From positions 3,360,001 to 3,424,000 of the forward strand of contig OZ240241.1 in assembly GCA_965198115.1 (NCBI GenBank): a stretch of 64,000 nucleotides of DNA, in the 5' to 3' direction. A program made the translations under genes and the position numbers. This DNA comes from Candidatus Latescibacterota bacterium (GTDB lineage: Bacteria > Latescibacterota > UBA2968). The notes beneath the pieces were generated by a model that worked only from the letters and a program-made list of their open reading frames with translations, had not been told where the DNA came from and did not search any database. Below, in pieces: positions 980 through 20,001 of the stretch. How positions within the stretch are numbered: position 1 is the first letter of the stretch; every line of letters starts with the position of its first letter.

Positions 980-1005
980 TAGGGACGGTTCGCGAACCGT
1001 CCCTA
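980..1005. repeat. REP-like perfect palindrome TAGGGACGGTTCGCGAACCGTCCCTA
   Basis: 26-bp perfect inverted repeat resembling GTAG-type REP sequences, immediately followed by the CTAG target of the IS cluster. Confidence 0.75.
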
Positions 1006-1202
1006 CTAGCCTGAATCATGCATGAATTTGAGTTTAGGTTGTTTTGGAGTGATGTGATCACGCACAGGATTTGTTCTCGGCTTCTTCGGATGTCCAAGGT
1101 CCCGTAAGCGGTCTCTACGAGTCGCAAGAGTCACGATTTTCGTCCGGAACAGGTGTTGTTTTGCGACGTGTACATAGCTGTCCCCGGTATAGATCGGCGT
1201 TG

Positions 1203-2000
1203 TTACTGCGTGTTCGTTTCGAGCCTGGTGATGATTGACACCAAGACGTTTTTGAGTGGATACGATGTTGGAAAATGGAATCGGATTCTTCGTGCGCTTT
1301 CAATGACTCTCGCGCCGATTTTGAGGAAACGGTTCTGTATCGTGTTGACCTGAGGTTTGGTCCACGCGGTGCCCTTGAGTCCCTGTGATCGGAGTGCGTG
1401 AAGCAAGGCGTATGCAGCACTGTGTAGAAAGAGTCGGAACTGGTTGGCTTCAAACTTGTGGCACGATGTTCGATCGGAGTGAAGGAATGTTTTGTGGTCC
1501 TTGATGAAGCCTTCCGTGCGTCCCCTTGCGCAGTAGATACGATCATAGATAAAGCCGTCTCGATTACTCTGTAAATTGGTCACGAGGTATCTTGGATTTG
1601 CTTCGCCGAGATCAGGACCGGAAAGAGGAAGCCGATCGCAGGCAGCCTTGACGCCCGGATCGTGGCGCAAATCATCACAATCGACGGCATCTTCATAGCC
1701 GCAAGCGATCTGAAAAACACGCTGCTTCACAAGATCCAAAAGCGTGTGATCGATATAGCTTGGGTGACGACGATCTCGCAAAGCATCTACCATTCTGGCG
1801 ATCAATCCCATCTGAGACTCAAGGGCGCGAAGCAACAGAACTCCACCGTCACTCCTGACGGCGCCACTGGCAAAATCAGCCTCAACTACCTTGCCCGAAA
1901 TGCTTGCGAATGGTAACCGGATCTGACTAGGTTCTATCACGGTAGTTCCTTCCAAGTGTTGTTTTGATGTGTCAGCCCTAATGTAGGGAAAAACAAACAC
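1203..2000 (-). pseudogene. IS1380-family transposase with a large internal deletion
   Basis: N-terminal SDGG.LLL and QIACGYED..D.D.LRHDP motifs joined directly to the C-terminal Y..RG..E..IK..K and F.ANQFRL motifs. Only 265 aa; the central DDE core is missing. Confidence 0.8.
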
Positions 2001-2026
2001 TTGTACAAGGGGACTACCTTTTTTAT

Positions 2027-3446
2027 GGCTATATCCGGATCTCTCAACGAGCTGAAGTGGGTGAAGGTGCCGTGGTTCCTGGCATGGGGGCGCGGTTAGA
2101 GTGTGCGGAACCTCTTCGGAATCTGCTCAGGGATGTTTATGTCTCCGACGGTAAGGAAGATCATATCGTTGAATGCGTCGAGTGTGCGGAATCCGCTGGC
2201 TCGGTTCTTGACGATTTGGACGATTCGGTTGAGGCCTTCGGCGATGGCGTTGGTAAGACGCGTGTTCACGAATGCGAGGACGCCGAAGAAGTGCTGTCGC
2301 AGGGTCCTGACGAACTTTCGCAGGGGTTCACGTCGACTTCTGAGTGCGGACGTCGTCCAGCATTTCAGGAAGCGTTCGGCAGCCCAGGGCGCTTTGTATT
2401 CCCAGAACTGCTCGAACTCGTCCTTGAGTCTCCAGGCTCTATAGATTCGGTAGTTCGCCTTCTCCAGTGCTTTGAGTGTCCGAGTATCCCCTCTGGAGCG
2501 TGTCGCTGAGTGCCGGTAGAGGAGCCATCGGAGGCCCTTCATGGCTTTGCGCTCATCCGGGGCAGCTTCACGCCACTGGTCCTTACGGACCTCGTCAACG
2601 GCGGCATTGAGAGCCTTGACGATGTGAAAGCGATCGAGGACCAGCTTGGCATTCGGACAGTGTTCCTGGATGGCTCCGATGTAAGCTTCGCTCATGTCGC
2701 AGCAGGCCCACTCGATCTTGGATCTCCGGTAGGGACTGAGAGCCTCTGTGAAGAACCGATCGATCGTTTTACGCGCCCTGCCGCGGCCAACCCACACCAC
2801 GCAGGAGCGGTCCAGATCGTAAACGAGCGTGGCGTACCTGTGACGCTTGGCGTAGGAGATCTCGTCGATCCCGATGGTTTTGAGCCCTCGGATACGATGA
2901 CCTTCACGAAGCCGCGTGATGGATCGGTGAAGGAGATCCGACAGCGTCGAGGCAGAGATGCGCAGTAACTCGGACGCCGCCTTCTGCGTCAAGGTCTGGC
3001 AGTAGCGCAGCATGGCATACTCGAAGCGATACGTCACCCGAGAGAACCGCTCCGCCCACGGAATCTCCTCGACCACACGACCGTGGGTAGGACACCGAAT
3101 CTCCCGAGGATGGTAGAGAAGCCAGACCCTCCACCCGCACACCGGAATGTCACGCCACCGACGCGGATGGGGCATTGTGCGGACGATTTTACCTCGACGG
3201 CCGCACTCCGGACAACAACAACCATTCTTATGGGGCTTTACGGCGATGACGAAGCAGCTTCTCCCCTCAAACCACCAGCTGACAACACGGAACCCCTTGA
3301 ATCTCAGCAGTTTCGATAGTAATCTGCTCCCGGTCATAGGTCGCACCCCCTTCGCTTTGATTGTCCTACACACACAACCAAGCGTAGGGAACGATCTATG
3401 ACCTTGTCATTCTATAGTTTCACCGTTGAGAAACCCGGATAGAGCC
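2027..3446 (-). mobile_element. ISL3-family IS, copy 1 (1420 bp)
   Basis: Ends GGCTATATCCGGATCTCTCAACG and CCGTTGAGAAACCCGGATAGAGCC; 8-bp target duplication TTTTTTAT (2019-2026, 3447-3454). Confidence 0.93.
2096..3373 (-). CDS. ISL3-family transposase
   Basis: Zn-finger CPECG, IGIDE, CCDMS, LDRFH and TNAIAEGLN motifs. Confidence 0.93.
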   Translation of the reverse strand: MCRTIKAKGVRPMTGSRLLSKLLRFKGFRVVSWWFEGRSCFVIAVKPHKNGCCCPECGRRGKIVRTMPHPRRWRDIPVCGWRVWLLYHPREIRCPTHGRVVEEIPWAERFSRVTYRFEYAMLRYCQTLTQKAASELLRISASTLSDLLHRSITRLREGHRIRGLKTIGIDEISYAKRHRYATLVYDLDRSCVVWVGRGRARKTIDRFFTEALSPYRRSKIEWACCDMSEAYIGAIQEHCPNAKLVLDRFHIVKALNAAVDEVRKDQWREAAPDERKAMKGLRWLLYRHSATRSRGDTRTLKALEKANYRIYRAWRLKDEFEQFWEYKAPWAAERFLKCWTTSALRSRREPLRKFVRTLRQHFFGVLAFVNTRLTNAIAEGLNRIVQIVKNRASGFRTLDAFNDMIFLTVGDINIPEQIPKRFRTL

Positions 3447-3470
3447 TTTTTTATGCATAATTCAGGCTAG

Positions 3471-5024
3471 GAGCCTGTCGGGTTACACCCGGAAGCTCGT
3501 TGAGATTAAGTCCAGCTGAGTCTGTCAGCGACCGGTTACCTTCGTTTTTTCCTTGAGCCGAGTTCCTCTTCGGGATCAGGTAGCCAATGAGAGTCGATAG
3601 AGTTTCAGAAGGTTGTGTGTGAGACAGATCAGGTTCCATTCTCTGATGACTTTGTGGATTCGGCGGAATGAGAATCGGGTGAAGTTCCGAACGGATTTGA
3701 TCTGTCCAAACACGGGTTCGATGATCTGTTTTCTTTTCCAGTAGGTGCAGCGACCTTTCTGTGTGAGAAGCTTTCTCGCCATTTTGTCTTTCGTCGTTGC
3801 GCCCTTGGGGATCCGTCCCCTGGGGCAGGTCGCGATGGGCGTTCCATGTTTCTGTTTTGTCGTCGCCACATAGAGGTCGACGCCATCTGATTGAACCTGA
3901 TCGACCTGACTTTGGTTGAAGTATCCGGTGTCGGCAGTGAGGTGCTTGGGTGTCGTGCCGCCCATATTCGCTCTGATCTGGTTGACCATAGGTGTCATCT
4001 GGTTCTTGTCATCAGCTTCTTGGGTGACGTCGGCAGCAACGACAATCTGGGCCTTGTCATCCACAGCAGCTTGGCAGTTGTAGGCTTGAAGGAATTGGCC
4101 CCCTGAGACCATGATCCGTGAGTCGGGATCGGTGAAGTTCAGTTGTTCCTTTCAGTCGGGCTCTTTCGATGGAGGCTTGGGCTTACGTCCACGACCGCCG
4201 CGGCGCTCCCGGGCCTTTACCTTCTCTTCATACGCTGCCTGCTTCTCAGGAAACTCAGCCTCCGCTTCGGCTTCGATCTCGGCTATTGCGTCGCGGATTA
4301 CTTTGAGTCGAGTCTCCCGGTGCTGCAACTCCTCGGGCAACTCGTCGCCGCGGTTGTCCTTTCCGTAGAGTTCGTCTTCGGCCGCGTCAGTGGCTTCGGC
4401 CTCGGTCAAGAGTCTGCGCACTTCGGCCTCGATCTCGGCTTCTTTCTTCTTCATCCGGCCGTAGCTCATCGCTTTGTGTTTTGAGGCATTTGCTTTGACT
4501 TTCGTGCCATCCAACGCCACGTGTCCCAGCTTCACCAGACCTGCCTTCACGCAGAGACACAGCACTTGCCTGAACAGACCTGAGAGGGCATCCAGATGCC
4601 GTTGACGAAAGGTCGATATCGTGTCGTGATCAGGATGCTGATCCAGGCTGAGCACACGGAAAGCAACCGAGTCATAGGTCGCACGCTCGATCTTGCGGGA
4701 ACTCCTGATGCCTTCACAGTAACCATACAGCAGTAGGCTCACCATCATCCGGGGATCATACGGTGGCTGGCCACCTTGAGACCCATCGTAGGTCTCGTAG
4801 ATCGCGGACAAATCAAGTTGTCCGACGATATCCAGAATGAAGTAGGTCGGATGACCCTTGGGAAGCCAACTCCGGAGATCCGGAGGCAGCAACATCAACT
4901 GAGCCGGATTGTAGACACGAAACCGAGTAGAAGTGCTCAACGGAAACCTCCAATTCAGAGTCGGAACCTTGATCGCACTTCTACAATACGAAATCTTCCT
5001 CCGGCTGGGTACTCCGACAGGCTC
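3471..5024 (-). mobile_element. IS1182-family element
   Basis: Ends GAGCCTGTCGG and CCGACAGGCTC; CTAG on both sides (3467-3470, 5025-5028). Confidence 0.88.
3576..4940 (-). pseudogene. IS1182-family transposase interrupted by one in-frame TGA at 4152-4154
   Basis: LPPDL..WLP, PYDPRMM, SSRKIE, DGTKVKANAS, NFTDPDSRIM, ADTGY and R...IEPVFGQIK motifs. ORFs 4152..4940 and 3576..4112 are in the same frame. Confidence 0.85.
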
Positions 5025-5037
5025 CTAGCATCGACAT

Positions 5038-5889
5038 TTAAATTCTCTCGATACTTGCGCGTTTCGGAAGTGCGGCCTGGAACTCCGCCACACTCTTGAA
5101 CGGGTCCTTCAACGCGTGCGTGGAGTGAACGGGCTCCGCCTGACGATATCGGACGTGAACCGCCCGCCGGATCCGCTCCGTCTTCCGGATCGTCGCGCAG
5201 TGCCAGCTTGCGTTGTTGAACAGAAGACCGGATCCCGCTTTCGCGTGTACGTCGACCCGACCGATCCGGCGCGGGAACTCGCGACCGAACGCGTCCGGCC
5301 ACAGCGGCTTGTCAGGATCCACATAGCTCGTGCGCGCATCGTCGATTCGCAGAACCCCTTCGGTCGTTTTGGGCAGCGTTCGTTTCGTCTCGGCGCTCTC
5401 CGGAATCACGCTCGTGCAGTGCGTCGTCTCGTCCACGTCATCCAGATAGTAGATAATCTGAATCGACGGCGCGAAGTACAAGTTCCTGTCGGCGCCCTCT
5501 ACGGTGCCGCTGTCCTCCCGATGCCACTGTCGCGACAGGGCGAGCGGATCGCCCCCGTCAATATCCTCCGGCGGGTCGGCCAGACACGGTTCACGACGCA
5601 TAAAGGTCAACCCGGAGCACAGACAGCCCTCGCCCAGGATCGCCTTTACAAGCGGGATCGCCGACGGATGATGGATCACACCATCCAACGCTTGAGTCCG
5701 ATGCATCAGCCCGGGGGCGTCGTTACTCACCGCATCGAAGCCCGGACGAGGCCTCATCACCCACTCCTCCGGATGTGTGGCCCTGTCCGAGTCGATCCCG
5801 TCGTTCACCCGTGCGATTTCCTCGGGCGACAACGCCTCGTGCAGGACGACATAGCCGTTTTCCTTGAAATGATCGAGATATTCGTCCAT
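5038..5889 (-). CDS. PhyH-family Fe(II)/2-oxoglutarate enzyme, paralog of 84..935
   Basis: Same length and motifs (QWHRED, SWHCA) and colinear with the first copy. Confidence 0.85.
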   Translation of the reverse strand: MDEYLDHFKENGYVVLHEALSPEEIARVNDGIDSDRATHPEEWVMRPRPGFDAVSNDAPGLMHRTQALDGVIHHPSAIPLVKAILGEGCLCSGLTFMRREPCLADPPEDIDGGDPLALSRQWHREDSGTVEGADRNLYFAPSIQIIYYLDDVDETTHCTSVIPESAETKRTLPKTTEGVLRIDDARTSYVDPDKPLWPDAFGREFPRRIGRVDVHAKAGSGLLFNNASWHCATIRKTERIRRAVHVRYRQAEPVHSTHALKDPFKSVAEFQAALPKRASIERI

Positions 5890-6051: not shown

Positions 6052-7032
6052 ATGAACCGTTACGAAACCCTCCGCCGACGCATCGCCGGTCCGATGGTCC
6101 CCCTCCCCATCCTCTACTGCGACAACCTCTCTGTCGACCACGCGGGCATCGCACGCTACGTCACCTGGCTGCTCGACGCGGGAATGACCAATACCTGCCT
6201 CACTTACGCCTACAGCCAGATCGGCTACGTCAGCGAAGAAGAGCCGATCGACATCACGCGAACGATCGCAGACGTCATCGGCGATCGGGCGGTTTTCATC
6301 GCCTGCTCGCACATCGACACGACCGAGAACACAGCTGCCCTCATCCAACAGATCAAGGAACTGGGTGCCCACGCCGTCTTCGCGATGCCCGAGCAGGATG
6401 GATGGCCAGCCGAGCAATACGGACCCCACCTCTCCACGATCGCCGAAACAGCTGACTTTCCGCTCCTGCTTGTGAACAACATCTCCCCAACCGATGCCGC
6501 GTCACCCATCTTCTCGATCGATGCGTACGAAGGCTTGCTCGAGCACGACGCCATCGTCGGTCTGAAGGAAGACTTCAACAACGTCCCCTATCGCCTGGAC
6601 CTCATCCGCGAATACGGCGAACGTCTCTGCATCATCGGCGGCGGTGTCCAGCGCAACTACCTCTTCTTCCACCACCATCCGCAGCAGGGCGAGTTGTTCG
6701 GCCAGTTCAGCCCGGCCACGGCGCACCGGTTCGTCGCGATGCTCGACGAAGAGCGGATGCGGGAGGCCATCGACTTCATAGCCCGTCGAGATCTTGCGTT
6801 GCGCGAAAGTCTTCTCGACCTCAACTGGCTCGCGCGGAATCAGGTCTATATGTATCAGATGGGATTCGCGGAGAGTTGGAAGCTTCGCCCCCCGCTCGAG
6901 TCTGCAACCGAGGCGCAAGTCTCGGAGGTCATTGCGGTGATGAAGGGGTATCCGGATGTGTTTACGGAGTTATGCGACTCACGTAGACACCATCCGGAGC
7001 GAGACGGAATCCGGTTCCCCGACGGCACGTAG
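6052..7032 (+). CDS. Dihydrodipicolinate synthase (DapA)-like class I aldolase family protein
   Basis: GPMVPLP...D..SVD..G start and VGLKED with the Schiff-base lysine. Confidence 0.75.
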   Translation: MNRYETLRRRIAGPMVPLPILYCDNLSVDHAGIARYVTWLLDAGMTNTCLTYAYSQIGYVSEEEPIDITRTIADVIGDRAVFIACSHIDTTENTAALIQQIKELGAHAVFAMPEQDGWPAEQYGPHLSTIAETADFPLLLVNNISPTDAASPIFSIDAYEGLLEHDAIVGLKEDFNNVPYRLDLIREYGERLCIIGGGVQRNYLFFHHHPQQGELFGQFSPATAHRFVAMLDEERMREAIDFIARRDLALRESLLDLNWLARNQVYMYQMGFAESWKLRPPLESATEAQVSEVIAVMKGYPDVFTELCDSRRHHPERDGIRFPDGT

Positions 7033-7297
7033 GGCTGAAGCCCGACGCTGGAAACACAAAGCCGGCTAAAGCCGGCTATTCCAACCCCGGAAATCGGGAG
7101 AGCTCGAACCCTGTCCGCACCAGCGATTCGCTCGTCTACCTACGTGGCTACGACTACTACAACATCAACTTCTGGCAGAAGCTCAGACGATTCCAATTCG
7201 GAATCGTCGACGACCCCTTCTGAGTACAGCAAGCGTTTCCTTCCACGGATTTATTTTTACCAGGGATTCGTCCCACTCGAACATTGCGTAGCGGCCC

Positions 7298-7336
7298 AAA
7301 ATAGACCCGGCCAAGAAGCGAACCGGGGTGACAATC
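7298..7336. repeat. Dispersed hairpin repeat, second copy at 15886..15925
   Basis: AAAATAGACCC(C)GGCCA.GAAGCG.ACCGGGGTGACAATC is present at both sites. Confidence 0.75.
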
Positions 7337-7481
7337 GTTGTTCGTTGGTGATGCGCGAAGCGAGAACTCCCAGTAAATCGACCTGCAGATCCTCCTCCTC
7401 CCTTAGCCGCTATCCTCGATCCCGATTCACCCACCGAACCCAACCTCCGTGTTCTCAGTCGTATGTTTTTCGTCTTTTTTT

Positions 7482-7563
7482 TGAACCGCGCTCCATCGGC
7501 CGGTGTCCTGACAGGTGAACGCCCAGAAAACGCGCGTGTAACCACCTCTCAGGAAGGAGCGTC
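7482..7563 (+). promoter_or_regulatory. Two tandem ECF-type promoter candidates
   Basis: TGAACC-N16-TGTC (7482-7507) and TGTAACC-N16-CGTC (7537-7563), upstream of the ECF sigma gene. Both match the general AAC/CGT ECF promoter pattern. Confidence 0.5.
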
Positions 7564-7643
7564 CAATGTAACCCACGACGCCGGTATCAAGTAGCGATGG
7601 GGTTTTTTGGTGACGTGACAAAAACGTGTAGGCTTCTTGAGTA

Positions 7644-7697
7644 CGTCGCACTTCGACGGAGTTCATCCTGAGCGCAGTCGAAGGGCTCAGTGTGACG
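7644..7697. repeat. Palindromic repeat of the CTTCGAC..GCTCAG..TGAC type; related copies at 8347..8369 and 8523..8557
   Basis: Shared CTTCGAC.N.GCTCAG core, with self-complementary arms in the 7644 and 8523 copies. Confidence 0.65.
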
Positions 7698-7757
7698 TAT
7701 CCATCCTCGGTGTAATCTGTGTGTTCTGTGGTTCCACCCCGTCTTTCAAGGACATCG

Positions 7758-8342
7758 ATGACCGACGAAGACCTCCTCACCGCCATCGCAAAGCAAGATG
7801 CTGATGCCTTCGGGGAGTTCTTCAACCGCTTCGAGCCTCAAGTGATCCGTCACCTGACGCGTATCGTCAGAGATCCGGCAACCGCCGACGATCTGACTCA
7901 AGACGTCTTTTTCCGGGTCTGGGCGCGCGCTGGGCAGTGGTCGGGGCGAGGCAGCGCGCGGAGTTGGCTGCTCACGATCGCCACAAATCTGGCCCTCAAC
8001 CACTTACGCACCGTTAAACGCCGCCGCGAGCAGCCTCTCGACCCTGGACCCGATCCTTACGCCGAAGGCGACGGGACCCACGCCCCCAGCTGGATGATCG
8101 ACGAAGCCGCCGTCGGCGCGGATGAGCAATACGAACAGACCGAGCGACGGCAGTTGCTCAACGGCCTCGTCGACGAGCTGCCCGAAGACAAGCGCGAGGT
8201 CTTACGCCTCGTCTACGACGCCGAAATGGATGTAAGGGATGTCGCCGACCACCTCGGCATCCCAGAAGGCACCGTAAAATCCCGAATGCACCACGCGCGA
8301 CGACGACTGGCCGATCGATGGCGCAACATCGAAAAACCCTGA
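7758..8342 (+). CDS. ECF (group 4 sigma-70) RNA polymerase sigma factor
   Basis: Region 2 motifs D.DAF.EFF.RF, ADDLTQDVFFRVW and SWLLTIATN; region 4 motif LP...R....L......DVA..LGIPEGTVKSRMHHAR. Confidence 0.93.
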   Translation: MTDEDLLTAIAKQDADAFGEFFNRFEPQVIRHLTRIVRDPATADDLTQDVFFRVWARAGQWSGRGSARSWLLTIATNLALNHLRTVKRRREQPLDPGPDPYAEGDGTHAPSWMIDEAAVGADEQYEQTERRQLLNGLVDELPEDKREVLRLVYDAEMDVRDVADHLGIPEGTVKSRMHHARRRLADRWRNIEKP

Positions 8343-8459
8343 ACCACCCTTCGACTACGCTCAGGACAAGCTCCGACACCAAGACACGAAGAAAACCGGA
8401 AGGAAAGGCATGAGCCCCCACTCAGCTTGCGGACATAACCCCCACCTTCTGGGTGAATC

Positions 8460-8510
8460 AGCCCACTTCAGTGGGCTTCGCTAAAGTTGCGTGGGACTTC
8501 AGTCCCACGC
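8460..8510. repeat. Pair of REP-like hairpins with TTCA loops; related hairpins at 7032..7077
   Basis: AGCCCAC-TTCA-GTGGGCT and GCGTGGGAC-TTCA-GTCCCACGC. Confidence 0.7.
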
Positions 8511-8575
8511 GGCTTGGCCGATTACCGACACTTCGACTCGCGCTCAGTGTGACGGTATGTCGGCCTTCCTGAACT

Positions 8576-11500
8576 ATGAACACTCTCAATGAGGTGCGAA
8601 TGACAATCACTCCTGCAACACCCTGGCACAACACCTCCTACCAGACCTTCATCTCGAGCACGCTGCCCGACCTGTTGGCCGATCGTGTCCCGCTCGATGG
8701 CTACAGCGTCAACCGGGTCGACGACTACAACGTCAACGTCGAACTGTCGCTCAGGACGAAGGGCGGCTCGATCGATCTGTCGTTCGCTGACGTGCCGGCC
8801 CCGGATGAACACGGCCTGTTCTTTGTGGACGGACAACAGGAGAAAAATGGCGGCTACCGCGTTGTCGTTCCGTATCCCGACGGGTTCGACCTCACAAAGG
8901 CGAACATCCTGTGCGTCGGCGAACAGTTGGCCGAATTCGTGGAGGCACGACTGGGGGATGCGCCGAACGATCTCGACTGGGATCAGAAGCTGGCGGAAGC
9001 CTGGCTGCCGGTCACCGGCTGGCTGGACACGTTCCTTCGGACCCAGCCCACGTCCCAATTTATCCAGAGCACGAACTGGCTGGACCGCACAACGCATCTT
9101 CGTCGCATCACGCTCGTCCCGATCGCCTTCGCCGAGGGTCCGTCGGAGAAGACGCACATCATACCCTCACTCCCCACGAGATCGCACTACCTGATGTCGC
9201 CCGAAGACGCGGCGGCGGGCTCGAAGCGTGGGTTGACCTGTCCCATCATCCAGCCCGAAGGCCCGAATATGGGTTGGATCTTCGAAGTCGCCCGGGGCGC
9301 GGAGATCAGGGACGGACGGCTCGTCCGCATCGAAGGGGCAGATCCCGCGGACGCGTCCCTCAACGTCGGCTGGAGCGGCTCGATGATTCCCTTCATCGAG
9401 CACACCGACTCCGCCCGCTTGCTAATGGGCGCGAATATGATGCGTCAGTGGATTGCTCCGAGGAACACGGCTGGTCTCCCGTCCGTCCAAACTGCGCAGA
9501 CCTATCCCGAAGATCTCGTCGACGCGCTCTCGAATCCACCCGGCCCGACACCCGAACCTGCGCTCGTCCAGACGGGAACGGAGCCGGATGACGCCGACTA
9601 CTGGGCGGGCTATAACCTGCTGACTGCCTTCACGATGTGGGACGGTGACACGTTCGAGGACGGCGTCGTCTTGTCCGAGTCCGCGGCGGCAAGGATGGCC
9701 TTCCCAGCCGACGTCGATCTCGGTGATAAGTTGAGCACGCGTCACGGCTTCAAGGGCGTCGTGTCCCGTATTCTACCCGACTCTGAAATGCCCGCGCTTC
9801 CCGACGGTACCGCGGTCGACACCATCATTTCGCCGACCAGTCTGATCTCGCGAGTCAACTTTGGTCAGCTGCGAGAAGCTGTGATGGGCCGCATCGCTCA
9901 CGCCGAAGGCCAGCCTGCGGTCGTGCCCGCCTACGAGGCACTGTCAATCGAAGACTTGAAGAGCCGGTTGAAAGGGGTGGGGCTGCCCGAGGATGGAATG
10001 GACCAACTGACACTCGGCGGAGAGGCGCTCCCGCACAGATCGACGGTGGGCTACGTCTACTGGGGGCGCCTCACGCATCTGTCACGGCACAAGCTGCGCG
10101 GTACGGACCACCTACTGGGGCCCGTGCTCTTCGGTGAGCGGCAATACTCAACGCTGAAAGGTCTCAAAGCCTACGCCACGATCGGCGATCTGCTACGACG
10201 CGCAACGGAAGCAGGCAACACCGTCCCGACACTGGACAACGTCACGGCCAAACTCAACGAGGCCGGCATTGTCCTCGAGCGGAATGGAGAGGAAGTCACG
10301 TTCTCGACAAACGGCACGAAAGGCTATACCCTCGCCTCGCCGGTCCCTCACCCCTGGCATCCCGAGGTCGAACTGAGGGCCGTCAGCGAAGGCGAAGGCG
10401 ATCTCTACGACGACGTCGTCGCGGCGGACGAGCGGGTGCGTCGCCTCGACGACAACGCGCCCGCCCCGCTGAAGTCGGCGGCGATCGAGCGTCTTGCCGC
10501 GGCCGTCGGCGACTATCTGGACGCATCCCTCACACCGAGCGATCTAGAAATCGACGCGCGTGTGCCCGATAGCGGCCGTGCCGTCATCGTCCCCGGTGCC
10601 GAGCTCGCACTCGATCAGATCGGTGTCCCTCGCGAAATGGCGTGGACCCTGTTCGGTGAAGACGTCGCGTCGGAGCTAGGCGAGGACGCCGTCGAGAAGC
10701 GAACGAAGGCTGCTACGTCACGTCTGGAGGAAATCGCCAACTCCGCCCATCTCCTGATCCACAAGGGCGTCCACATCACAGCCACGTCTGTGCTCGCTGC
10801 GCGGCCCGTCCTCATCGACGATCCCGTTATCCGCATCCATCCGATGCACTGCGCGCTTCTGGATGCCGACTTCGACGGCGATCAGGTCGCCGTCACGCGG
10901 CTCAAGTCAGAAGACGCCGTTCGCGAATGTGTGGAACGACTTTCCATCGCCGGCCACCTGCGTCACACACCCGACGCGCTTCGAATCCTCATCGGACGGC
11001 CGCACGGAATCAACTGGGGCTTGACCCGGCTTGCCAGAACGGCTGACGGTCGGAAGAAGATGACAGACATAGCCGGCGAAGCGATCGGTGAGGATTACGG
11101 TGGTCGCCGGTCTTATCTCGCCCTGCTCGAGCGCATCTTCGAGCGGGAAGGCGACAACGACGAGGGCTTGGCTAGAACGTTCGCCATCTACGACGGCCTG
11201 ATGCGACTCGGGCTCCAGGCGTGCAAGGAATCGGGCGTCTCCATCAACCCGTTCCTCGGTGCCTCTCTCGATCTGCCCGCGCCACCGCAATCCGACGATC
11301 TCGAATTGATGCATATATACAAGGAAGAACTCATCGCCGCGCTCAATCAGCATTCGGATCCCGATGACGGCGATGTCGGCACCTTCAACAGCTTCCGGCT
11401 CACAGGAACACGCGGCAGCGATGGGCAATACGTCCTCTACTTCGGCGCCATCGGCCACGTCGAGGGCGTCAACGTTCGTCACGGCTACATCAAAGGCCTC

Positions 11501-11740
11501 GACGTCGACGAAACCGCCGCCCTCAGCGCGAGAACAAGAGCCGCCATCGCCAGCGCCAACCGACAGATGGCCTCCTTCGACGATCGCCCGACCCTTCCCG
11601 GCCGCTCCTACGGCGTCATCGCAAGAGCGCGCAGAAGCGATCGCCCTGGCGTCGTCTTCGCACGGGCAGCCGCCAGAGGTGAAGTCGATCCCTTGGAGGA
11701 TGTTGATGCGCGGATCTTGTGTGGCTTGCCGGTGACATAG
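8576..11740 (+). CDS. Miniaturised single-chain RNA polymerase: fused RpoB-like and RpoC-like core (1054 aa)
   Basis: Beta motifs in order: SQF...TNWL..TTHLRRI, CPIIQPEGPNMG, IPFIEH.D..RLLMGANMMRQ, FEDGVVLSE, GDKLSTRHGFKGVV, MP.LPDGT.VD, SRVNFGQ, TVGYVY...L.HL. Then beta-prime motifs: LASPVPH.W, clamp helices, RV..SGRAVIVPG, HP..C...DADFDGDQ.AV, G.RGS..Q, GY.KGL and A.RGEVDPL. Confidence 0.9.
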   Translation: MNTLNEVRMTITPATPWHNTSYQTFISSTLPDLLADRVPLDGYSVNRVDDYNVNVELSLRTKGGSIDLSFADVPAPDEHGLFFVDGQQEKNGGYRVVVPYPDGFDLTKANILCVGEQLAEFVEARLGDAPNDLDWDQKLAEAWLPVTGWLDTFLRTQPTSQFIQSTNWLDRTTHLRRITLVPIAFAEGPSEKTHIIPSLPTRSHYLMSPEDAAAGSKRGLTCPIIQPEGPNMGWIFEVARGAEIRDGRLVRIEGADPADASLNVGWSGSMIPFIEHTDSARLLMGANMMRQWIAPRNTAGLPSVQTAQTYPEDLVDALSNPPGPTPEPALVQTGTEPDDADYWAGYNLLTAFTMWDGDTFEDGVVLSESAAARMAFPADVDLGDKLSTRHGFKGVVSRILPDSEMPALPDGTAVDTIISPTSLISRVNFGQLREAVMGRIAHAEGQPAVVPAYEALSIEDLKSRLKGVGLPEDGMDQLTLGGEALPHRSTVGYVYWGRLTHLSRHKLRGTDHLLGPVLFGERQYSTLKGLKAYATIGDLLRRATEAGNTVPTLDNVTAKLNEAGIVLERNGEEVTFSTNGTKGYTLASPVPHPWHPEVELRAVSEGEGDLYDDVVAADERVRRLDDNAPAPLKSAAIERLAAAVGDYLDASLTPSDLEIDARVPDSGRAVIVPGAELALDQIGVPREMAWTLFGEDVASELGEDAVEKRTKAATSRLEEIANSAHLLIHKGVHITATSVLAARPVLIDDPVIRIHPMHCALLDADFDGDQVAVTRLKSEDAVRECVERLSIAGHLRHTPDALRILIGRPHGINWGLTRLARTADGRKKMTDIAGEAIGEDYGGRRSYLALLERIFEREGDNDEGLARTFAIYDGLMRLGLQACKESGVSINPFLGASLDLPAPPQSDDLELMHIYKEELIAALNQHSDPDDGDVGTFNSFRLTGTRGSDGQYVLYFGAIGHVEGVNVRHGYIKGLDVDETAALSARTRAAIASANRQMASFDDRPTLPGRSYGVIARARRSDRPGVVFARAAARGEVDPLEDVDARILCGLPVT

Positions 11741-11825
11741 TCATCTGACCGACATACACGTCAAAGCCGCGGGTTGGTCGAGAGGACCGATCCGCGGCTT
11801 TTATTATCAGAAAGAAGTCGCCTGC

Positions 11826-11999
11826 TTGTCATTTCGACACGGTGTCACCCGCGACCAGGAAACACACCATCGCGATCTGCGGCGACCCGTGGAGAAATTC
11901 CTGCGCCTGGATGCAAGAGAGCCTGTCACGTTGTCCCTTCCCGCAGGGATCTCTCACCCGTGGCGAGGGCCGAGGCTCAAATCGGGTTCGAGATGACAA
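11826..11999. repeat. Long nested imperfect hairpin element
   Basis: Outer arms TTGTCATTTCGA and TCGAGATGACAA; inner arms GAGAAATTCCTGCG and CGCAGGGATCTCTC. Confidence 0.65.
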
Positions 12000-12518
12000 A
12001 CTAGATGCGCGATCTGGATCCCACACGTCGGTTCACCAAGCTGCTGGGGAAGACTACCCACTCGACGCCTCTTCGCCCGGTGCCCTCGGTGGTAGGTTTT
12101 CAGTGTATTCTGTGTGCTCTGTGGTTCCCTCTCTCACTGGGCAGGCTCACCCAAATCCCGCGGAGTCCTAGGCCAATGGAACTTCTCCTCCCCCGTCAGC
12201 AGCGCCCGATGCTCTTCGGATATGGTCTTCACGAAGTCGGGATCGGGATCGTACCGGTTCCACGCCTGGAACATCGTGGGCATATACCCACCCAGAATGA
12301 GAAGGCGTTCCCTGTTCGACCGGATGATGCCCGCCGAATGCATCAGGGATTCGTAGAAGAGTAGCGTCGAGCCCGCCGGAGCTTCGACCTGATGGATCAT
12401 AGAAGGATCTTCCATTGCCGCATCCACGATCGCATCACGTGAAACGTCGGTCCCCACCTTGTGCGTCCCTGCGATGACCGTCGTCCCGCCGTCATCCGGC
12501 CCTAGATCCGTCAGATTA

Positions 12519-13812
12519 GGGTTTGCCACGAAATAAGTGCTGCACTTTTCAAGGTAATGATCTTACGCTCGGAGTGTGGACGTCGAAACTCTCCGAACGA
12601 AGTATGAAGCCTTGGCTCCGGTGCTGACGGAACGCACGCGTCGTCTGTGGGCCGCCACGGAAGCCGAAGCGTTGGGTCACGGTGGGATCGCGATTGTGGC
12701 TCTGGCGACAGGAATGTCCAGAGAGCGGATCTTTCGTGGCATTCAGGAGTTGAGGTCGGACGAACCTTTGGACCCGGCTCGCATCCGGCGTCCAGGCGGC
12801 GGTCGTAAGCGGAAGGCCGACACGGACCCGACGCTGTGGCAGGACCTGAATGATCTGGTCGAGCCAACGACTGCGGGGTCGCCTGACGACAATCCTCTGA
12901 GATGGACATCGAAGAGCACTCGCAAACTGGCCGCCGAGTTGCAAGCGATGGGGCATTCGGTGAGCCCCAGGATCGTTGCCAATCTCCTGCACGAACACGA
13001 TTACACGCTGCAGGCGAATCGGAAGACAAGGGAGGGATCTGCACACCCGGATCGGGACGCTCAGTTCGTTTACCTCGATGATCGGATTAGCCAGCAGCAG
13101 CAGCAGGGCCTTCCCGTTATCTCGGTGGACACCAAGAAGAAAGAGTTGATCGGCGACTTCAAGAATCCTGGCCGAGAATGGCGACCCAAGGGAGACCCGG
13201 AGCGTGTGAAGGTACACGATTTCATAGTGCCTGCTCAGGGCAAGGCGATCCCTTATGGAGTGTATGATCTGAGCCGTGATGAAGGCTGGGTAAGTGTCGG
13301 TATCGATCACGACACGGCCAGCTTCGCCGTGAATGCGATCCGAAGTTGGTGGAAGAACATGGGACGGCCCGCCTACGGCACTTCGACGCATCTGCTAATC
13401 ACGGCGGACGCAGGCGGCAGCAACGGCGCCAAGACGCGGCTGTGGAAGTGGGAGCTGCAGCGCTTTGCGAATCGCACTGGCCTGACGATCACCGTATGCC
13501 ACTACCCTCCTGGCACTAGTAAGTGGAACAAGATCGAACATCGCCTGTTCTCCTTCATCGCTATGAACTGGCGAGGCAAGCCCCTGGTCAGCCTGGCTGC
13601 AACCGTGAATCTCATTGCCGGAACGACCACTCAAGCCGGTCTCCGAGTACGCTCCGAGATCGACAAGCGACCCTACCCTAACGGGGTCAAGGTGACCGAT
13701 GAACAGATGACCCAAATCGATCTCACTCCGCACGATTTCCACGGCGACTGGAACTACACGATCCGGCCAATGGCTCAACATTGAGATCGACCGTTTATTT
13801 ATTCGCGAACCC
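12519..13812 (+). mobile_element. ISAzo13-family IS
   Basis: Imperfect ends GGGTTTGC..AAATAA and TTATTTATTCGCGAACCC; 3-bp duplication TTA (12516-12518, 13813-13815). Confidence 0.88.
12576..13784 (+). CDS. ISAzo13-family transposase
   Basis: ISVDTKKKELIG, ADAGGSNG, PPGTSKWNKIEHRLFS and FHGDWNYTI motifs. Confidence 0.95.
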   Translation: MDVETLRTKYEALAPVLTERTRRLWAATEAEALGHGGIAIVALATGMSRERIFRGIQELRSDEPLDPARIRRPGGGRKRKADTDPTLWQDLNDLVEPTTAGSPDDNPLRWTSKSTRKLAAELQAMGHSVSPRIVANLLHEHDYTLQANRKTREGSAHPDRDAQFVYLDDRISQQQQQGLPVISVDTKKKELIGDFKNPGREWRPKGDPERVKVHDFIVPAQGKAIPYGVYDLSRDEGWVSVGIDHDTASFAVNAIRSWWKNMGRPAYGTSTHLLITADAGGSNGAKTRLWKWELQRFANRTGLTITVCHYPPGTSKWNKIEHRLFSFIAMNWRGKPLVSLAATVNLIAGTTTQAGLRVRSEIDKRPYPNGVKVTDEQMTQIDLTPHDFHGDWNYTIRPMAQH

Positions 13813-14462
13813 TTAGTCAGCGCCTTGACAAACGAGAAGTGGTAGAGACCCCGTTCCATATGACTGTATGCCGGGTTGATTCCACGATGGAAGCCAAACC
13901 GCTCCCCACCATCGGCCACTGGCCGGCGTATGTGGGCATCCGATTGCTGGAGCCGGGCCGGGCCACCGATGATTTCCTCTGCCATCCCGACAATGAACGG
14001 GCTCGTCAGGTAATCGAAAAAACACTGTGCCAGGTGCGGCAGGTTATCGATCCGGAAGAACTCCTCCGTCGTACTCGTGTTGAAGCAGTTCGGCCCGGGC
14101 ATTTCTCCGTTCCGGCGAAACTGATCCTCTATCTCATACAGCGTCTCCTTCAGCACATCGATCTCGTCCTGCGACAACACCTGTTCGACAATGACGTACC
14201 CGTAGATCTCGATGTGCAATCGCTGAGCGGGCGTCAGCGCGGGAAACGACTTTGCTTTCGGTTCTGCGGTCATTGATTCCGATCCCTTGGTTCCGTGGAC
14301 GTCACAGTGATGCCCATATGATAGGCCGGGCAGCGGCCAAGCCATCGCTCCTCTCACTGCAGTTCCGTAGGAATTCACACTACGATGGTGGTGCGAATGC
14401 GTCGGCCACCGAGACGAGGGACTCAAGCCCACCGCTTGGCCGCAAAAGTCGGGTCGAAAAAT

Positions 14463-15882
14463 GGCTCTATCCGGGTTTCTCAACGGTGAAACTATAGAAT
14501 GACAAGGTCATAGATCGTTCCCTACGCTTGGTTGTGTGTGTAGGACAATCAAAGCGAAGGGGGTGCGACCTATGACCGGGAGCAGATTACTATCGAAACT
14601 GCTGAGATTCAAGGGGTTCCGTGTTGTCAGCTGGTGGTTTGAGGGGAGAAGCTGTTTCGTCATCGCCGTAAAGCCACATAAGAATGGTTGTTGTTGTCCG
14701 GAGTGCGGCCGTCGAGGTAAAATCGTCCGCACAATGCCCCATCCGCGTCGGTGGCGTGACATTCCGGTGTGCGGGTGGAGGGTCTGGCTTCTCTACCATC
14801 CTCGGGAGATTCGGTGTCCTACCCACGGTCGTGTGGTCGAGGAGATTCCGTGGGCGGAGCGGTTCTCTCGGGTGACGTATCGCTTCGAGTATGCCATGCT
14901 GCGCTACTGCCAGACCATGACGCAGAAGGCGGCGTCCGAGTTACTGCGCATCTCTGCCTCGACGCTGTCGGATCTCCGTCACCGATCCATCACGCGGCTT
15001 CGTGAAGGTCATCGTATCCGAGGGCTCAAAACCATCGGGATCGACGAGATCTCCTACGCCAAGCGTCACAGGTACGCCACGCTCGTTTACGATCTGGACC
15101 GCTCCTGCGTGGTGTGGGTTGGCCGCGGCAGGGCGCGTAAAACGATCGATCGGTTCTTCACAGAGGCTCTCAGTCCCTACCGGAGATCCAAGATCGAGTG
15201 GGCCTGCTGCGACATGAGCGAAGCTTACATCGGAGCCATCCAGGAACACTGTCCGAATGCCAAGCTGGTCCTCGATCGCTTTCACATCGTCAAGGCTCTC
15301 AATGCCGCCGTTGACGAGGTCCGTAAGGACCAGTGGCGTAAAGCTGCCCCGGATGAGCGCAAAGCCATGAAGGGCCTCCGATGGCTCCTCTACCGGCACT
15401 CAGCGACACGCTCCAGAGGGGATACTCGGACACTCAAAGCACTGGAGAAGGCGAACTACCGAATCTATAGAGCCTGGAGACTCAAGGACGAGTTCGAGCA
15501 GTTCTGGGAATACAAAGCGCCCTGGGCTGCCGAACGCTTCCTGAAATGCTGGACGACGTCCGCACTCAGAAGTCGACGTGAACCCCTGCGAAAGTTCGTC
15601 AGGACCCTGCGACAGCACTTCTTCGGCGTCCTCGCATTCGTGAACACGCGTCTTACCAACGCCATCGCCGAAGGCCTCAACCGAATCGTCCAAATCGTCA
15701 AGAACCGAGCCAGCGGATTCCGCACACTCGACGCATTCAACGATATGATCTTCCTTACCGTCGGAGACATAAACATCCCTGAGCAGATTCCGAAGAGGTT
15801 CCGCACACGCTAACCGCGCCCCCATGCCAGGAACCACGGCACCTTCACCCACTTCATCTCGTTGAGAGATCCGGATATAGCC
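14463..15882 (+). mobile_element. ISL3-family IS, copy 2 (1420 bp)
   Basis: Near-identical inverted copy of 2027..3446; 8-bp duplication CGAAAAAT (14455-14462, 15883-15890). Confidence 0.93.
14536..15813 (+). CDS. ISL3-family transposase
   Basis: Differs from copy 1 at about 4 amino acids. Confidence 0.93.
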   Translation: MCRTIKAKGVRPMTGSRLLSKLLRFKGFRVVSWWFEGRSCFVIAVKPHKNGCCCPECGRRGKIVRTMPHPRRWRDIPVCGWRVWLLYHPREIRCPTHGRVVEEIPWAERFSRVTYRFEYAMLRYCQTMTQKAASELLRISASTLSDLRHRSITRLREGHRIRGLKTIGIDEISYAKRHRYATLVYDLDRSCVVWVGRGRARKTIDRFFTEALSPYRRSKIEWACCDMSEAYIGAIQEHCPNAKLVLDRFHIVKALNAAVDEVRKDQWRKAAPDERKAMKGLRWLLYRHSATRSRGDTRTLKALEKANYRIYRAWRLKDEFEQFWEYKAPWAAERFLKCWTTSALRSRREPLRKFVRTLRQHFFGVLAFVNTRLTNAIAEGLNRIVQIVKNRASGFRTLDAFNDMIFLTVGDINIPEQIPKRFRTR

Positions 15883-18627: not shown

Positions 18628-20001
18628 GAGCTATAATCAAAAGGTGTGGAAAAAGAGAAAGGGCGACCCTACCCTTCCCGTGAGATAGTTGATTCACACA
18701 AAACCGGGTGAGAGGCCCGGTTGGGAAGGAGGATCGCCGTGAAGGAACATACGCATAGAGCCCCATTGAAGTCCATGCCGACGTGGGAGACGGTTGACGA
18801 TTGGATCCGTGAAGAGATCCAGGGCCGGTTCCAGTCCATTCTGGAGGAGGAGGCGACCGCGTTCTTGGGCCGGTCGTGGTATGAGCGCCGAGCCGAGGTC
18901 GATAGCTCCAGGGGCTACAGGAACGGCTACGGCAAGCCCCGGCGTCTCTCGACGAGCTGCGGAACGATCAAGGTCCGGCGTCCCCGGGTTCGTGGTCTGG
19001 AAGAGCGGTTTGAAAGCCGCATCCTCCCCCTGTTCGCCCGGAGAACCAGGGCCATTGGAGATCTGCTTCCCGACCTTTATCTCCACGGTCTCTCCCAGGG
19101 CGACTTCGAGTTGTCTTTGCGTGCGCTGCTCGGTGATGGCGCGCCGCTTTCGCCGACCTCGATCGCTCGTCTTCGAGGGAAGTGGGAGGTCGACTTCCAG
19201 GACTGGAAAGAAAGGCGTCTGGATAATCGCGAACTGGTCTACGCCTGGGCTGATGGCATCTACGTCAAAGCCGGGCTCGAGCGCGAGAAGGCGTGTCTGC
19301 TGGTCGTGATCGGCGCGATGAGCGACGGCAGCAAGGAGATCCTGGCGATAGAACCCGGTTATCGAGAGTCTACAGAATCCTGGCTCACGGTGCTCCGGGA
19401 TCTCCGGGATCGCGGGCTCGAACATCCTGTCCTGATCGCCGCGGACGGGAATATGGGCATCTGGGCGGCCGTTGATCAGGTCTGGCCAGAGAGCCGGCAA
19501 CAACGGTGCTGGAACCACAAGATCCTCAACGTGCTCGACAAGGTCGCCAAGCGTGCACAGGCTGAAGCCCGCGCACTGCTCGTCCAGATCCCCTATGCCG
19601 GCACGAAAAAGGAGGCCGAGAAGCTCCGGAAACGCTTTGCCGCACGGTATCGCTCACAGTTCCCTGCCGCCGTGGAGACGCTCGAAAGAGACTGGGATCG
19701 GATGGTCACGTTCTACGACTTCCCGAAGGAACACTGGAAACACCTGAGAACCACGAACGTCGTCGAGAGCCCCTTTGCTTCCGTTCGGCTTCGCACAAAC
19801 GCCGCCAGGCGATTCAAGAAAGTCAGGAACGCCACGGCTCTCATCTGGCGTACGCTCAAGGTCGCAGAGAGCCGATTCAGGAAACTCACCGCGCCACACT
19901 TGCTACAACAAGTCTACGATCAGAAACACTCAACCGGACCGCAGGTCGAAGCCGGGAAGATGGCCGCCTGATTTCTTTTACACACCTATTGACCTGAGCT
20001 C
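18628..20001 (+). mobile_element. IS256-family IS, copy 1 (1374 bp)
   Basis: Ends GAGCTATAATCAAAAGGTGTG and CACACCTATTGACCTGAGCTC; flanks ACTGCTTTC and GCTGCTTTC (9-bp duplication with one mismatch). Confidence 0.9.
18739..19971 (+). CDS. IS256-family transposase
   Basis: YRNGY, WADGIY, IAADG, QRCWNHK and LRTTNVVES motifs; GTG start after AGGAGG. Confidence 0.93.
   Translation: MKEHTHRAPLKSMPTWETVDDWIREEIQGRFQSILEEEATAFLGRSWYERRAEVDSSRGYRNGYGKPRRLSTSCGTIKVRRPRVRGLEERFESRILPLFARRTRAIGDLLPDLYLHGLSQGDFELSLRALLGDGAPLSPTSIARLRGKWEVDFQDWKERRLDNRELVYAWADGIYVKAGLEREKACLLVVIGAMSDGSKEILAIEPGYRESTESWLTVLRDLRDRGLEHPVLIAADGNMGIWAAVDQVWPESRQQRCWNHKILNVLDKVAKRAQAEARALLVQIPYAGTKKEAEKLRKRFAARYRSQFPAAVETLERDWDRMVTFYDFPKEHWKHLRTTNVVESPFASVRLRTNAARRFKKVRNATALIWRTLKVAESRFRKLTAPHLLQQVYDQKHSTGPQVEAGKMAA

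Follow-up and report, generated by a model that had tools for sequence, protein, structure and literature searches.

RESULTS

A sigma factor gene and a miniature RNA polymerase gene form a cassette

The DNA analysed here is a stretch of 64,000 nt (the window) from Candidatus Latescibacterota bacterium (contig OZ240241.1 of assembly GCA_965198115.1, positions 3,360,001 to 3,424,000 of the forward strand). It carries a cassette of two genes on the same strand: a gene for a sigma factor of the extracytoplasmic function (ECF) type, preceded by a promoter-like site, and a gene for a miniature RNA polymerase in which a beta and a beta-prime core are joined in one polypeptide. The features of the cassette are collected in Table 1.

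In the list of open reading frames (ORFs) of the window, the mini polymerase is a single uninterrupted frame of 1054 aa (8576..11740, + strand). The start codon is probably the one for M9 at 8600, giving a protein of 1046 aa that ends at the stop codon 11738-11740, because the database copy has 1046 aa, the homologs align from residue 8-9, and the N-terminal end is disordered in the AlphaFold2 (AF2) model, with a predicted local distance difference test (pLDDT) score below 50 for residues 1-10. An earlier note, made from the sequence of the window, had described this frame as RpoB motifs followed by RpoC motifs. Translation and the order of the Pfam domains agree with that description, and the three motifs it quoted lie where it had placed them, namely FED at residues 360-362 (from 9653), GDKLSTRHGFKG at 383-394 (from 9722) and DADFDGD at 763-769 (10862-10882).

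The locus is not a misassembly, a danger that the earlier note had raised. A short-read contig from a public run, which may be the window's source sample, spans 8527-11800 with 0 differences, and a second sample of the same short-read study holds identical pieces of the mini-polymerase region.

Table 1. Features of the cassette in the window; residues refer to the 1054-aa frame of the mini polymerase
Feature	Position	Strand	Basis
ECF-type promoter-like site, TGAACC 7482-7487, CGGTGTC 7501-7507	7479..7510	+	motif match; putative function
Long leader from promoter-like site to sigma start, short interspersed repeat ~7649-7697	7511..7757	+	19 BLAST matches in genome
ECF-type sigma gene, 194 aa from ATG 7758; longest ORF from GTG 7719, 207 aa	7758..8342	+	Pfam, NCBIfam
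257-nt sigma-polymerase gap (10-30 nt in most loci), three short interspersed repeats	8343..8599	+	BLAST against genome
Reduced beta N-terminal/protrusion-like domain, 'region B' motif; residues 9-100	8600..8875	+	VIA-align start, model 2-8 ~ beta 2-45
Beta fork/D-region (beta 443-578, PEGPN 227-231) and region E (FIEHxD..GANMMRQ, beta 655-690); residues 101-295	8876..9460	+	hhalign
Beta double-psi barrel, no flap insert between halves; FED 360-362, GDK..RHGxKG 383-394, R426; residues 326-445	9551..9910	+	Pfam, hhalign
Beta C-terminal region to beta end (beta ~1195-1342); residues 446-575	9911..10300	+	hhalign
Beta-prime N-terminal 'region A'-like motif PVPHPW, no zinc-binding cysteines; residues 584-598	10325..10369	+	local hhalign to beta-prime 76-125, E 0.008, weak
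Clamp helices (beta-prime coiled-coil, E. coli 267-310); residues 609-651	10400..10528	+	hhalign; model hairpin H609-623/H630-651
Shortened switch-2 and beta-prime double-psi barrel, DFDGD 765-769 = 10868-10882; residues 652-800	10529..10975	+	Pfam, hhalign
Reduced funnel, SGARG-like/F-loop segment, bridge helix H977-1001; residues 801-1001	10976..11578	+	hhalign, model
Short C-terminal end like beta-prime region H; residues 1002-1054	11579..11737	+	local hhalign, residues 1027-1050 ~ beta-prime 1331-1354, E 0.05, weak

The mini polymerase is a fusion of pruned bacterial-type cores

The mini polymerase is a beta::beta-prime fusion of pruned bacterial-type cores that retains both double-psi barrels and an intact DFDGD motif. 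Pfam places RNA_pol_Rpb2_6 (4.3e-35) at residues 380-507, followed by RNA_pol_Rpb1_2 (7.5e-13) at 736-786. The NCBIfam models for bacterial rpoB (TIGR02013; 8.6e-40, 136.3 bits) and rpoC (TIGR02386; 2e-16, 59 bits) both match well below their curated cut-offs of 801.15 and 963.5, and the archaeal models are weaker (1.5e-25 on the rpoB side and 2e-4 on the rpoC side). Among solved structures, the best sequence matches are the bacterial chain 8i23_C for beta (4.9e-36, residues 352-510) and 8i23_D for beta-prime (2.7e-13, residues 660-801).

When the family alignment (A1) was compared with E. coli subunits by hhalign, residues 95-558 aligned with beta 443-1342 (Prob 100, E 9.2e-39) and residues 598-986 with beta-prime 267-787 (E 3.5e-29). 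The AF2 model is confident (pLDDT 90.1, predicted template modelling score 0.89) and includes the clamp hairpin and a long bridge helix. Its best Foldseek matches in the PDB are bacterial and plastid beta chains (~5e-20). With VIA-align, it superposes on beta/Rpb2 chains with Z of 28-31 and a root-mean-square deviation of 2.5-3.2 Å over 454-507 residues, spreading over the full beta/Rpb2 length (for example, model 2-548 against residues 2-1301 of 6x26_I). This superposition covers the beta half only, and the VIA-align list is filled by beta/Rpb2 chains. In these alignments, bacterial beta chains share 29-30% identity with the model, whereas the values for archaeal and eukaryotic (Rpb2) chains are 20-25%. 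Together with the ranking of bacterial over archaeal models, this supports the earlier proposal that the enzyme derives from cellular RpoB and RpoC.

Counts out of 70 given here refer to aligned members of the family. In the N-terminal domain, for which the local alignment is weak (residues 67-98 to beta 121-146, E 0.0025), W17, H18, L30, P31, Y43, P76, G80, F82 and P99 are invariant, as are N167, R176, P227, G229, H276, D278 and G285 (70/70) of the fork and region E. The two halves of the beta barrel are joined by ~20 residues in place of E. coli beta ~830-1050, which holds the flap and SI2, and the end of the beta part is recovered locally (residues 501-573 to beta 1237-1342, Prob 94.5, E 7.4e-8). 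H592, P593 and W594 of the PVPHPW motif are present in 70/70 members. We had considered this motif as the lid and dropped that assignment, as it aligns, weakly, to the N-terminal region A of beta-prime. In the clamp helices, P629 and L632 are invariant and N618 and R620 are found in at least 90% of the members. The bridge helix, aligned to beta-prime 750-787, follows the F-loop, with G974 in 70/70 and E979 in 68/70. Near the C-terminus, the invariant residues are R1017, A1018, P1024, G1025, R1030, A1031, L1040 and G1050. Beta-prime 788-1330, where the trigger loop and jaw would lie, has no aligned counterpart, and the ~25 residues between the bridge helix and the region-H-like end are too few to hold either.

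Relative to the E. coli core, the beta part of the mini polymerase has thus kept an N-terminal remnant, the fork, region E, its barrel and its C-terminal part. The beta-prime part has kept the region-A motif, the clamp helices, its barrel with DFDGD, the F-loop, the bridge helix and the region-H-like end, together with a shortened switch 2 and a partial funnel. The protein has lost the beta lobes, the flap with SI2, and the zipper, zinc domain, dock region, trigger loop and jaw of beta-prime. The pruning therefore goes deeper than the clean removal of peripheral domains described in the earlier note, since the flap and the trigger loop are gone as well.

Catalytic residues are conserved in most members of the family

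The three aspartates of the DFDGD motif, D765, D767 and D769, are kept in 63, 67 and 64 of the 70 members, with the full triad in 58/70, and F766 is invariant (70/70). On the beta side, R426 is found in all 70, D362 in 69, E361 in 65 and K393 in 62 (as K), while K385, the equivalent of E. coli K1065, is K in 54 and R in 16. Among the E. coli equivalents that had been listed as retained, E813/D814, K1065, K1073, R1106 and D460/462/464 are indeed kept, but H1237 is not, a histidine being found there in 3/70 members. In copies with visible gene context, DFDGD is intact in 36 of 37. The exception (L027, NFDGD) retains its sigma.

A private sigma factor accompanies the mini polymerase

The polymerase has a conserved sigma partner and a promoter-like motif, both of which the earlier note had overlooked. 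The sigma protein contains regions 2 and 4 only (Sigma70_r2, 8.7e-18; Sigma70_r4_2, 9.1e-14). It passes the general sigma70-ECF model (TIGR02937, 105.9 bits against a cut-off of 42.9), and no named sigma subfamily or equivalog model of NCBIfam reaches its own cut-off on it. The linker between domains 2 and 4 carries a conserved motif, VPxWMIDAASLGPDA, which ECF sigmas do not usually have. A search for longer or fused forms of the sigma at E<=1e-20 came back empty, which is weak evidence.

The linkage of the two genes is strict. By tblastn, 31 of 35 loci have a sigma ortholog with 35-56% identity immediately upstream of the polymerase on the same strand, usually ending 10-30 nt before the polymerase start. 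Of the other four, two have no upstream DNA (L038, L044), one holds a 74-aa sigma remnant (L030), and in L023 there is no match. When neighbouring genes were clustered, sigma was the only gene common across phyla. The other neighbours are metabolic and reflect local synteny, among them PhyH dioxygenases, oxidoreductases and a methyltransferase. No third gene that could encode an anti-sigma is conserved across phyla at the cassette loci, and no alpha- or omega-like gene is linked to the cassette in 37 contexts, although by sequence the enzyme may still use the host's alpha.

The association also holds genome by genome. A profile of the sigma searched over 41 genomes around the host gave 21 matches at 266-294 bits, the next best scoring 124 bits, and these 21, two of them in the host, map without exception to the 20 polymerase carriers, all of which are represented, and to none of the 21 others. 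Trees of sigma and polymerase for 25 pairs show the same major groupings, with a patristic correlation of r = 0.97 (300 non-independent pairs). Sigma is the better conserved of the two across lineages (47-63% against 38-57%). Prediction of a complex between polymerase residues 9-814 and sigma from their own alignments gave interface scores (ipSAE) of 0.29 and 0.22, against a mark of 0.32 and with no controls, and we count it neither way.

In a related genus in which the gene is fixed, five of 15 genomes (G015, G018, G019, G020, G024) have a sigma-polymerase gap of 1.3-2 kb. In G015 and G018, an ORF of 381-396 aa of no known family lies in this gap on the same strand (L048:3967-5112, -; L050:1160-2350, +). 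It has a weak TPR hit, is 93% identical between the two genomes and is possibly a lineage-specific regulator.

A promoter-like motif precedes the sigma gene

The motif TGAACyT-N16-CGGTGTC, searched as a regular expression with a fixed inner spacer, occurs upstream of sigma in 30 of 33 upstream regions. The inner spacer is 12 nt in 27 of these and 11 nt in three, and the three misses are near-variants by eye. A matrix with the 12-nt spacer, built from 13 de-duplicated sites that leave out the host's own, scores the site of the window at 20.2 bits, second best in the 8.4-Mb genome. The motif stands 20-40 nt before the start codon in most loci but ~250 nt in the window; measured to the reference point, the distance is 236 nt in the window against 2-41 nt in most loci (73 nt in L041).

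No sigma-70-like promoter was found upstream of the cassette, no terminator-like site on the + strand downstream of it, and no Rfam match at E<=1 in 7000-12600. The three repeats of the sigma-polymerase gap (~8343-8406, 8457-8511 and 8518-8584; repeats of about 45-65 nt) have 9, 5 and 31 matches in the genome. Word depth spikes at 7547-7693 and reaches 144.8 at 8429-8575, where short-read contigs break.

With an 11-nt spacer, the best site of the genome (G000:C1:3187622, 24.9 bits, without a computed null) is 108 nt upstream of a gene for a 405-aa GNAT acetyltransferase (3186266-3187483, -; Acetyltransf_9, 5.9e-28), a single possible candidate target of the cassette's promoter system as judged by this sequence match. 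The other top sites mostly precede ORFs of no family, and the site of a paralogous cassette, described below, ranks fourth.

The mini polymerase is widespread, selected and coexists with the canonical enzyme

A word-indexed protein search returned 635 proteins at E<=0.001. The best 120 of these have 38-100% identity, 98-99% query coverage and 991-1077 aa, save one fragment of 673 aa; the closest relatives have 83%, 72% and 66% identity, and the named homologs are labelled 'hypothetical protein'. When 1.84 billion representatives were searched exhaustively, 7251 proteins passed E<=1e-3, 2622 passed 1e-10 and 235 passed 1e-30; the best 150 are mostly 980-1100 aa or fragments of such proteins. 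Homologs with the same deletions, whose absence would have spoken against the earlier reading, are thus present in other genomes by the hundreds at 980-1100 aa. In contigs taken from one genome per species, 35 confirmed loci belong to Latescibacterota, Gemmatimonadota, Chloroflexota, Kiritimatiellae, Spirochaetales and Armatimonadia, and names in the word-indexed search add Poribacteria and Hydrogenedentes, so that the family spans at least six phyla.

Around the host, 20 of the 41 genomes carry the gene at E<=1e-50. The carriers include 18 of 24 genomes in the host's family (host not counted) and, from the sister family, one of 16. One related genus has the gene in all its genomes (15/15), and the other species of the host's own genus does not have it (0/1). 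In eight pairs, the ratio of non-synonymous to synonymous substitution rates (dN/dS) is 0.14-0.22 for the polymerase and 0.09-0.22 for sigma. Both genes are under purifying selection, as had been supposed for the polymerase.

The host genome is one contig of 8.43 Mb with adjacent full-length rpoB (1827 bits) and rpoC (1770 bits) at ~1.96 Mb, 1.4 Mb from the window at 3.36 Mb. The mini polymerase is therefore a second polymerase, as proposed. It is 23-37% identical to the host's RpoB and RpoC, over the barrel cores only, which indicates an old lineage and not a recent derivative.

We also considered a phage or plasmid gene and rejected it, as no full-length relative is present in phage or plasmid records. 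In 50,697 phage records searched, none of 33 matches covers at least 80% of the mini polymerase, nor does any of 68 in plasmid records; what matches are the barrel cores of ordinary rpoB/rpoC, and PHROGs gives partial core matches only. The PADLOC defence models give 0 families for the polymerase, the sigma or the inserted 381-396-aa ORF.

A second cassette and the surroundings of the locus

The host has a second sigma and mini-polymerase cassette at ~1.43 Mb (G000:C1:1427408-1431234; L046:8406-12187, -), with a polymerase of 1069 aa (39% identical to that of the window), a sigma of 201 aa (53% identical) and a promoter-like site 17 nt before sigma. The two cassettes belong to different subclades and are thus not the product of a recent duplication; the window polymerase is the most diverged lineage sampled, with 38-42% identity to all others. 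IS1595, Mutator and ISL3 transposases flank the second cassette.

No phage genes lie near the cassette of the window, in agreement with the earlier note, but seven transposase ORFs of five kinds, on which it was silent, do so within 20 kb (1203-4940, 12576-13784, 14536-15813, 18721-19971). Two 425-aa ISL3 transposases are in the window and a third is beside the second cassette, and 416-aa Mutator-family transposases occur at both. A PhyH dioxygenase gene on the minus strand is split into 12134-12529 and 13395-14483 by an ISAzo13-type transposase (12576-13784, +; PF07592, 3.5e-140). PhyH genes flank the cassette both in the window (84-1127, 5038-5889, 12134-14483) and in the Latescibacterota loci L011-L030, one upstream on the opposite strand and one downstream and convergent. 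Shared ancestry of the locus and the abundance of PhyH genes are both conceivable reasons.

DISCUSSION

A proposed self-contained mini holoenzyme

Here, we have described a fusion of pruned beta and beta-prime cores that is encoded next to an ECF-type sigma and a promoter-like motif in genomes of several phyla. We favour, with modest confidence, the reading that the two proteins form a self-contained mini holoenzyme, predicted to transcribe from its own promoter. That sigma and polymerase work together is argued by their phyletic and physical linkage, their co-diversification and the private promoter. The mini protein would be an active DNA-dependent RNA polymerase that requires neither alpha nor omega, since the fusion could replace the scaffold they provide. 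The best-known role of the clamp helices is the docking of sigma region 2 (and NusG), and their retention is the strongest structural argument for a sigma-directed holoenzyme. Domain 2 of the sigma would dock on these helices, and domain 4 would use another surface, for which the beta N-terminal remnant and the conserved sigma linker are candidates. With TGAACyT-N16-CGGTGTC as its recognition site, the holoenzyme would also control its own operon by feedback. An enzyme stripped of flap, lid, zipper and trigger loop is expected to be fast but error-prone and to respond little to pauses and hairpins, as has been reported for YonO. Its output could be read-through into neighbouring genes or transcription of a small number of distant targets, or it could stand in for the main enzyme during a block. 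With the lobes, the jaw, the trigger loop and most of the surfaces bound by antibiotics and factors gone, the mini polymerase could work while the main polymerase is blocked.

Several observations weigh against this reading. The flap, an element that binds sigma or TFIIB and whose tip normally holds sigma region 4 (PMC7824862), is deleted, so a new sigma contact must be assumed. The partner sigma, whose region 2 and region 4 motifs are ordinary, might just as well work with the host core. The promoter matrix is not enriched genome-wide (42 sites above 14 bits against 28 expected, and two above 20 bits against ~5.6), so no regulon is visible beyond the cassette. In the window, repeats separate promoter, sigma and polymerase, and expression as an operon may therefore be weakened. 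Loss of catalytic aspartates, which the earlier note had seen as a threat to its own reading, does occur: 12 of the 70 members (P0012, P0028, P0047, P0050, P0059, P0084, P0085, P0087, P0093, P0099, P0112 and P0117 of A1) have an altered triad, two without the motif (GFSAQ) and the others reading NFDGD, DFDGN, YFDGD, SFDGD or DFAGD. Catalysis is thus not maintained in every lineage, and by sequence these members are possibly inactive or repurposed. The Asn of NADFDGD (E. coli N458) is replaced in most members (E in 36, N in 18, D in 15 of 70) and the stretch equivalent to R425 is not conserved among the 70, so that substrate handling may differ. There are also damaged copies: a polymerase with an in-frame TAG (G009:C156:41147-44257), a sigma split over two frames (L025:5368-5992), a polymerase called as 325 + 566 aa (L037), and L030, where the sigma remnant is followed by an N-terminally shortened polymerase. 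They suggest occasional decay or assembly errors in metagenome-assembled genomes.

Alternatives to a sigma-directed mini holoenzyme

The sigma might instead serve the host core only and switch the operon on, the mini polymerase being its regulated product and acting without a sigma, as YonO may. This is the main rival; we regard it as unlikely overall, yet it deserves serious weight. Autoregulation of an ECF sigma operon through the host core is common, and the standard regions 2 and 4 of this sigma, as well as the missing dock for region 4 on the mini polymerase, are what such a division of labour would lead one to expect; the factor requirement of YonO is left open in the accessible part of its description (PMC5467207). 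What this explanation does not obviously account for is why a private sigma subfamily is present in 20/20 carriers and in 0/21 other genomes, why the sigma is more conserved than the enzyme (47-63% vs 38-57%), or why its linker motif is kept. Moreover, the clamp helices are kept and conserved in the mini polymerase, whereas the sigma-less enzyme of yeast killer plasmids has lost them, as described in the part of the literature at hand (PMC6211774). It is also conceivable, but improbable in our view, that the two-barrel fold acts here on another template or makes another product, whether by RNA-dependent RNA synthesis or by the making of primers or DNA. The superfamily holds precedents in QDE-1-type enzymes and archaeal PolD; N458 and R425, whose equivalents vary in the family, contact the substrate sugar in the canonical enzyme; and the lost zipper, flap and trigger loop are elements of RNA-DNA separation and substrate checking. 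Nevertheless, the similarity is to DNA-dependent bacterial beta and beta-prime and not to PolD or to enzymes of the RNA-dependent RNA polymerase type, the protein retains features of a transcribing enzyme (the fork, a remnant of switch 2, the bridge helix and the F-loop), and its association with a factor for promoter recognition and with a promoter-like motif speaks for initiation on a DNA template.

A mainly non-catalytic protein derived from a dead polymerase, working as a sigma sink, a decoy or a DNA-binding regulator, would fit the full-length members with changed metal-binding aspartates, including the two that have none, and it would fit L027, which has NFDGD, keeps its sigma and has a dN/dS of 0.22 against L028. 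We find it distinctly improbable for the family, in which 58/70 members have all three aspartates, R426 and a K or R at 385 are present in 70/70, and conservation extends over the whole active-site cleft and not only over the sigma dock; the copy in the window is intact. That the locus is an artefact or a decaying remnant, be it a misassembly, a pseudogene or cargo of an insertion sequence, could be suspected from the seven transposase ORFs around the cassette and from the repeats in its leader and intergenic gap. This can be set aside with near certainty, given the uninterrupted ORF, the short-read contig without differences, the identical pieces in a second sample, the hundreds of homologs of the same length, the fixation in 15/15 genomes of a related genus and a dN/dS well below 1.

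Comparison with known systems

The textbook view is that bacteria have one RNA polymerase core that swaps sigma factors. If the cassette is a mini holoenzyme as we favour, a second chromosomal core, conserved and under selection, that has a sigma and a promoter to itself would call for a revision of this view in several large, mostly uncultured phyla, would define how little of beta and beta-prime suffices for promoter-specific transcription and how a sigma works without the flap, and would provide a compact two-gene orthogonal expression system. With two proteins and a 30-nt promoter, it becomes testable what is a catalytic necessity and what a regulatory addition in the multisubunit enzyme. 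We put forward, tentatively, that a ~115-kDa core with a 22-kDa ECF sigma, orthogonal, with a private promoter and running as an independent second transcription system in many phyla, may be the smallest sigma-dependent transcription machine known.

The earlier note knew of no characterised example, and we found no description of a sigma and mini-polymerase cassette in the literature searched, where papers in subscription journals or bioRxiv supplements could hold one. The ECF classification of Casas-Pastor 2021 (PMC7826278) contains no Rpb1, Rpb2 or RpoB term in its main text or in one supplement. A fusion of similar size, Orf6 of yeast killer plasmids, had nevertheless been overlooked in that note.

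Compared with canonical RpoB and RpoC working with an ECF sigma, the mini polymerase has both barrels with the catalytic residues, the fork, region E, the C-terminal clamp part of beta, the clamp helices, a switch-2 remnant, the F-loop and the bridge helix, and its sigma is of the ordinary ECF type. The motif of the cassette likewise resembles ECF promoters, with a GAAC -35 and a GTC-containing -10 element. The canonical subunits, however, comprise ~2700 aa in two chains against ~1046 aa in one, and the mini polymerase lacks the lobes, flap, zipper, zinc domain, much of the dock and funnel, the trigger loop and the jaw, with no alpha or omega gene linked to it. Full-length rpoBC fusions of the Helicobacter and Wolbachia type share the order of beta before beta-prime in one polypeptide, but they are complete housekeeping enzymes of ~2840-2890 aa, whereas the mini polymerase coexists with separate rpoB and rpoC. 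It scores 125.9 bits against NF007172 (cut-off 5372) and 111.1 bits against NF011417 (cut-off 4632). As these and the rpoB and rpoC cut-offs are all failed, the protein is neither an RpoB or RpoC equivalog nor a full-length rpoBC fusion.

Among reduced or viral enzymes, YonO of the Bacillus subtilis prophage SPbeta is also a single chain of ~100 kDa with two barrels and no trigger loop. The available part of its description reports an active DNA-dependent RNA polymerase that transcribes efficiently, with lower fidelity and no proofreading (PMC5467207), which shows that so minimal an enzyme can function. As far as that description goes, YonO is prophage-encoded, has no known sigma and, a few residues apart, shows no detectable homology to the active centre of cellular enzymes. 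The mini polymerase is not YonO-like on this comparison, which was made by description, because its homology to beta and beta-prime is strong and it has no phage context. The RNA polymerases of the jumbo phages phiKZ and AR9 are diverged bacterial-type beta/beta-prime homologs that do without alpha, but they consist of four or five polypeptides, are phage-borne and, in the account available in part, keep the flap insert (PMC7824862).

A parallel in size and in fusion order is K2ORF6p of yeast killer plasmids, a fusion of ~975-982 aa that joins a beta-like part to part of beta-prime, with shortened spacing between conserved regions (PMC2919709, PMC6211774). In the portions of these papers at hand, K2ORF6p and its partner K2ORF7p resemble the cassette in being built on a similar-size fusion, in having no alpha-like subunit and in using a private promoter element. 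K2ORF6p differs in being a eukaryotic plasmid enzyme of poxvirus-like origin that retains every beta region, with the flap insert, but has no clamp coiled-coil, lid or rudder, has its beta-prime C-terminus as a separate small subunit and works without a sigma. Compared by these partial descriptions, the mini polymerase reverses the pattern: it has lost the flap and kept the clamp helices, carries the beta-prime end in its own chain, and has a sigma attached. Its origin, moreover, is bacterial. The mini polymerase, widespread, selected and apparently undescribed so far, is a variant with a new architecture among two-barrel RNA polymerases of the cellular type, and it is coupled to a sigma factor and a promoter of its own.

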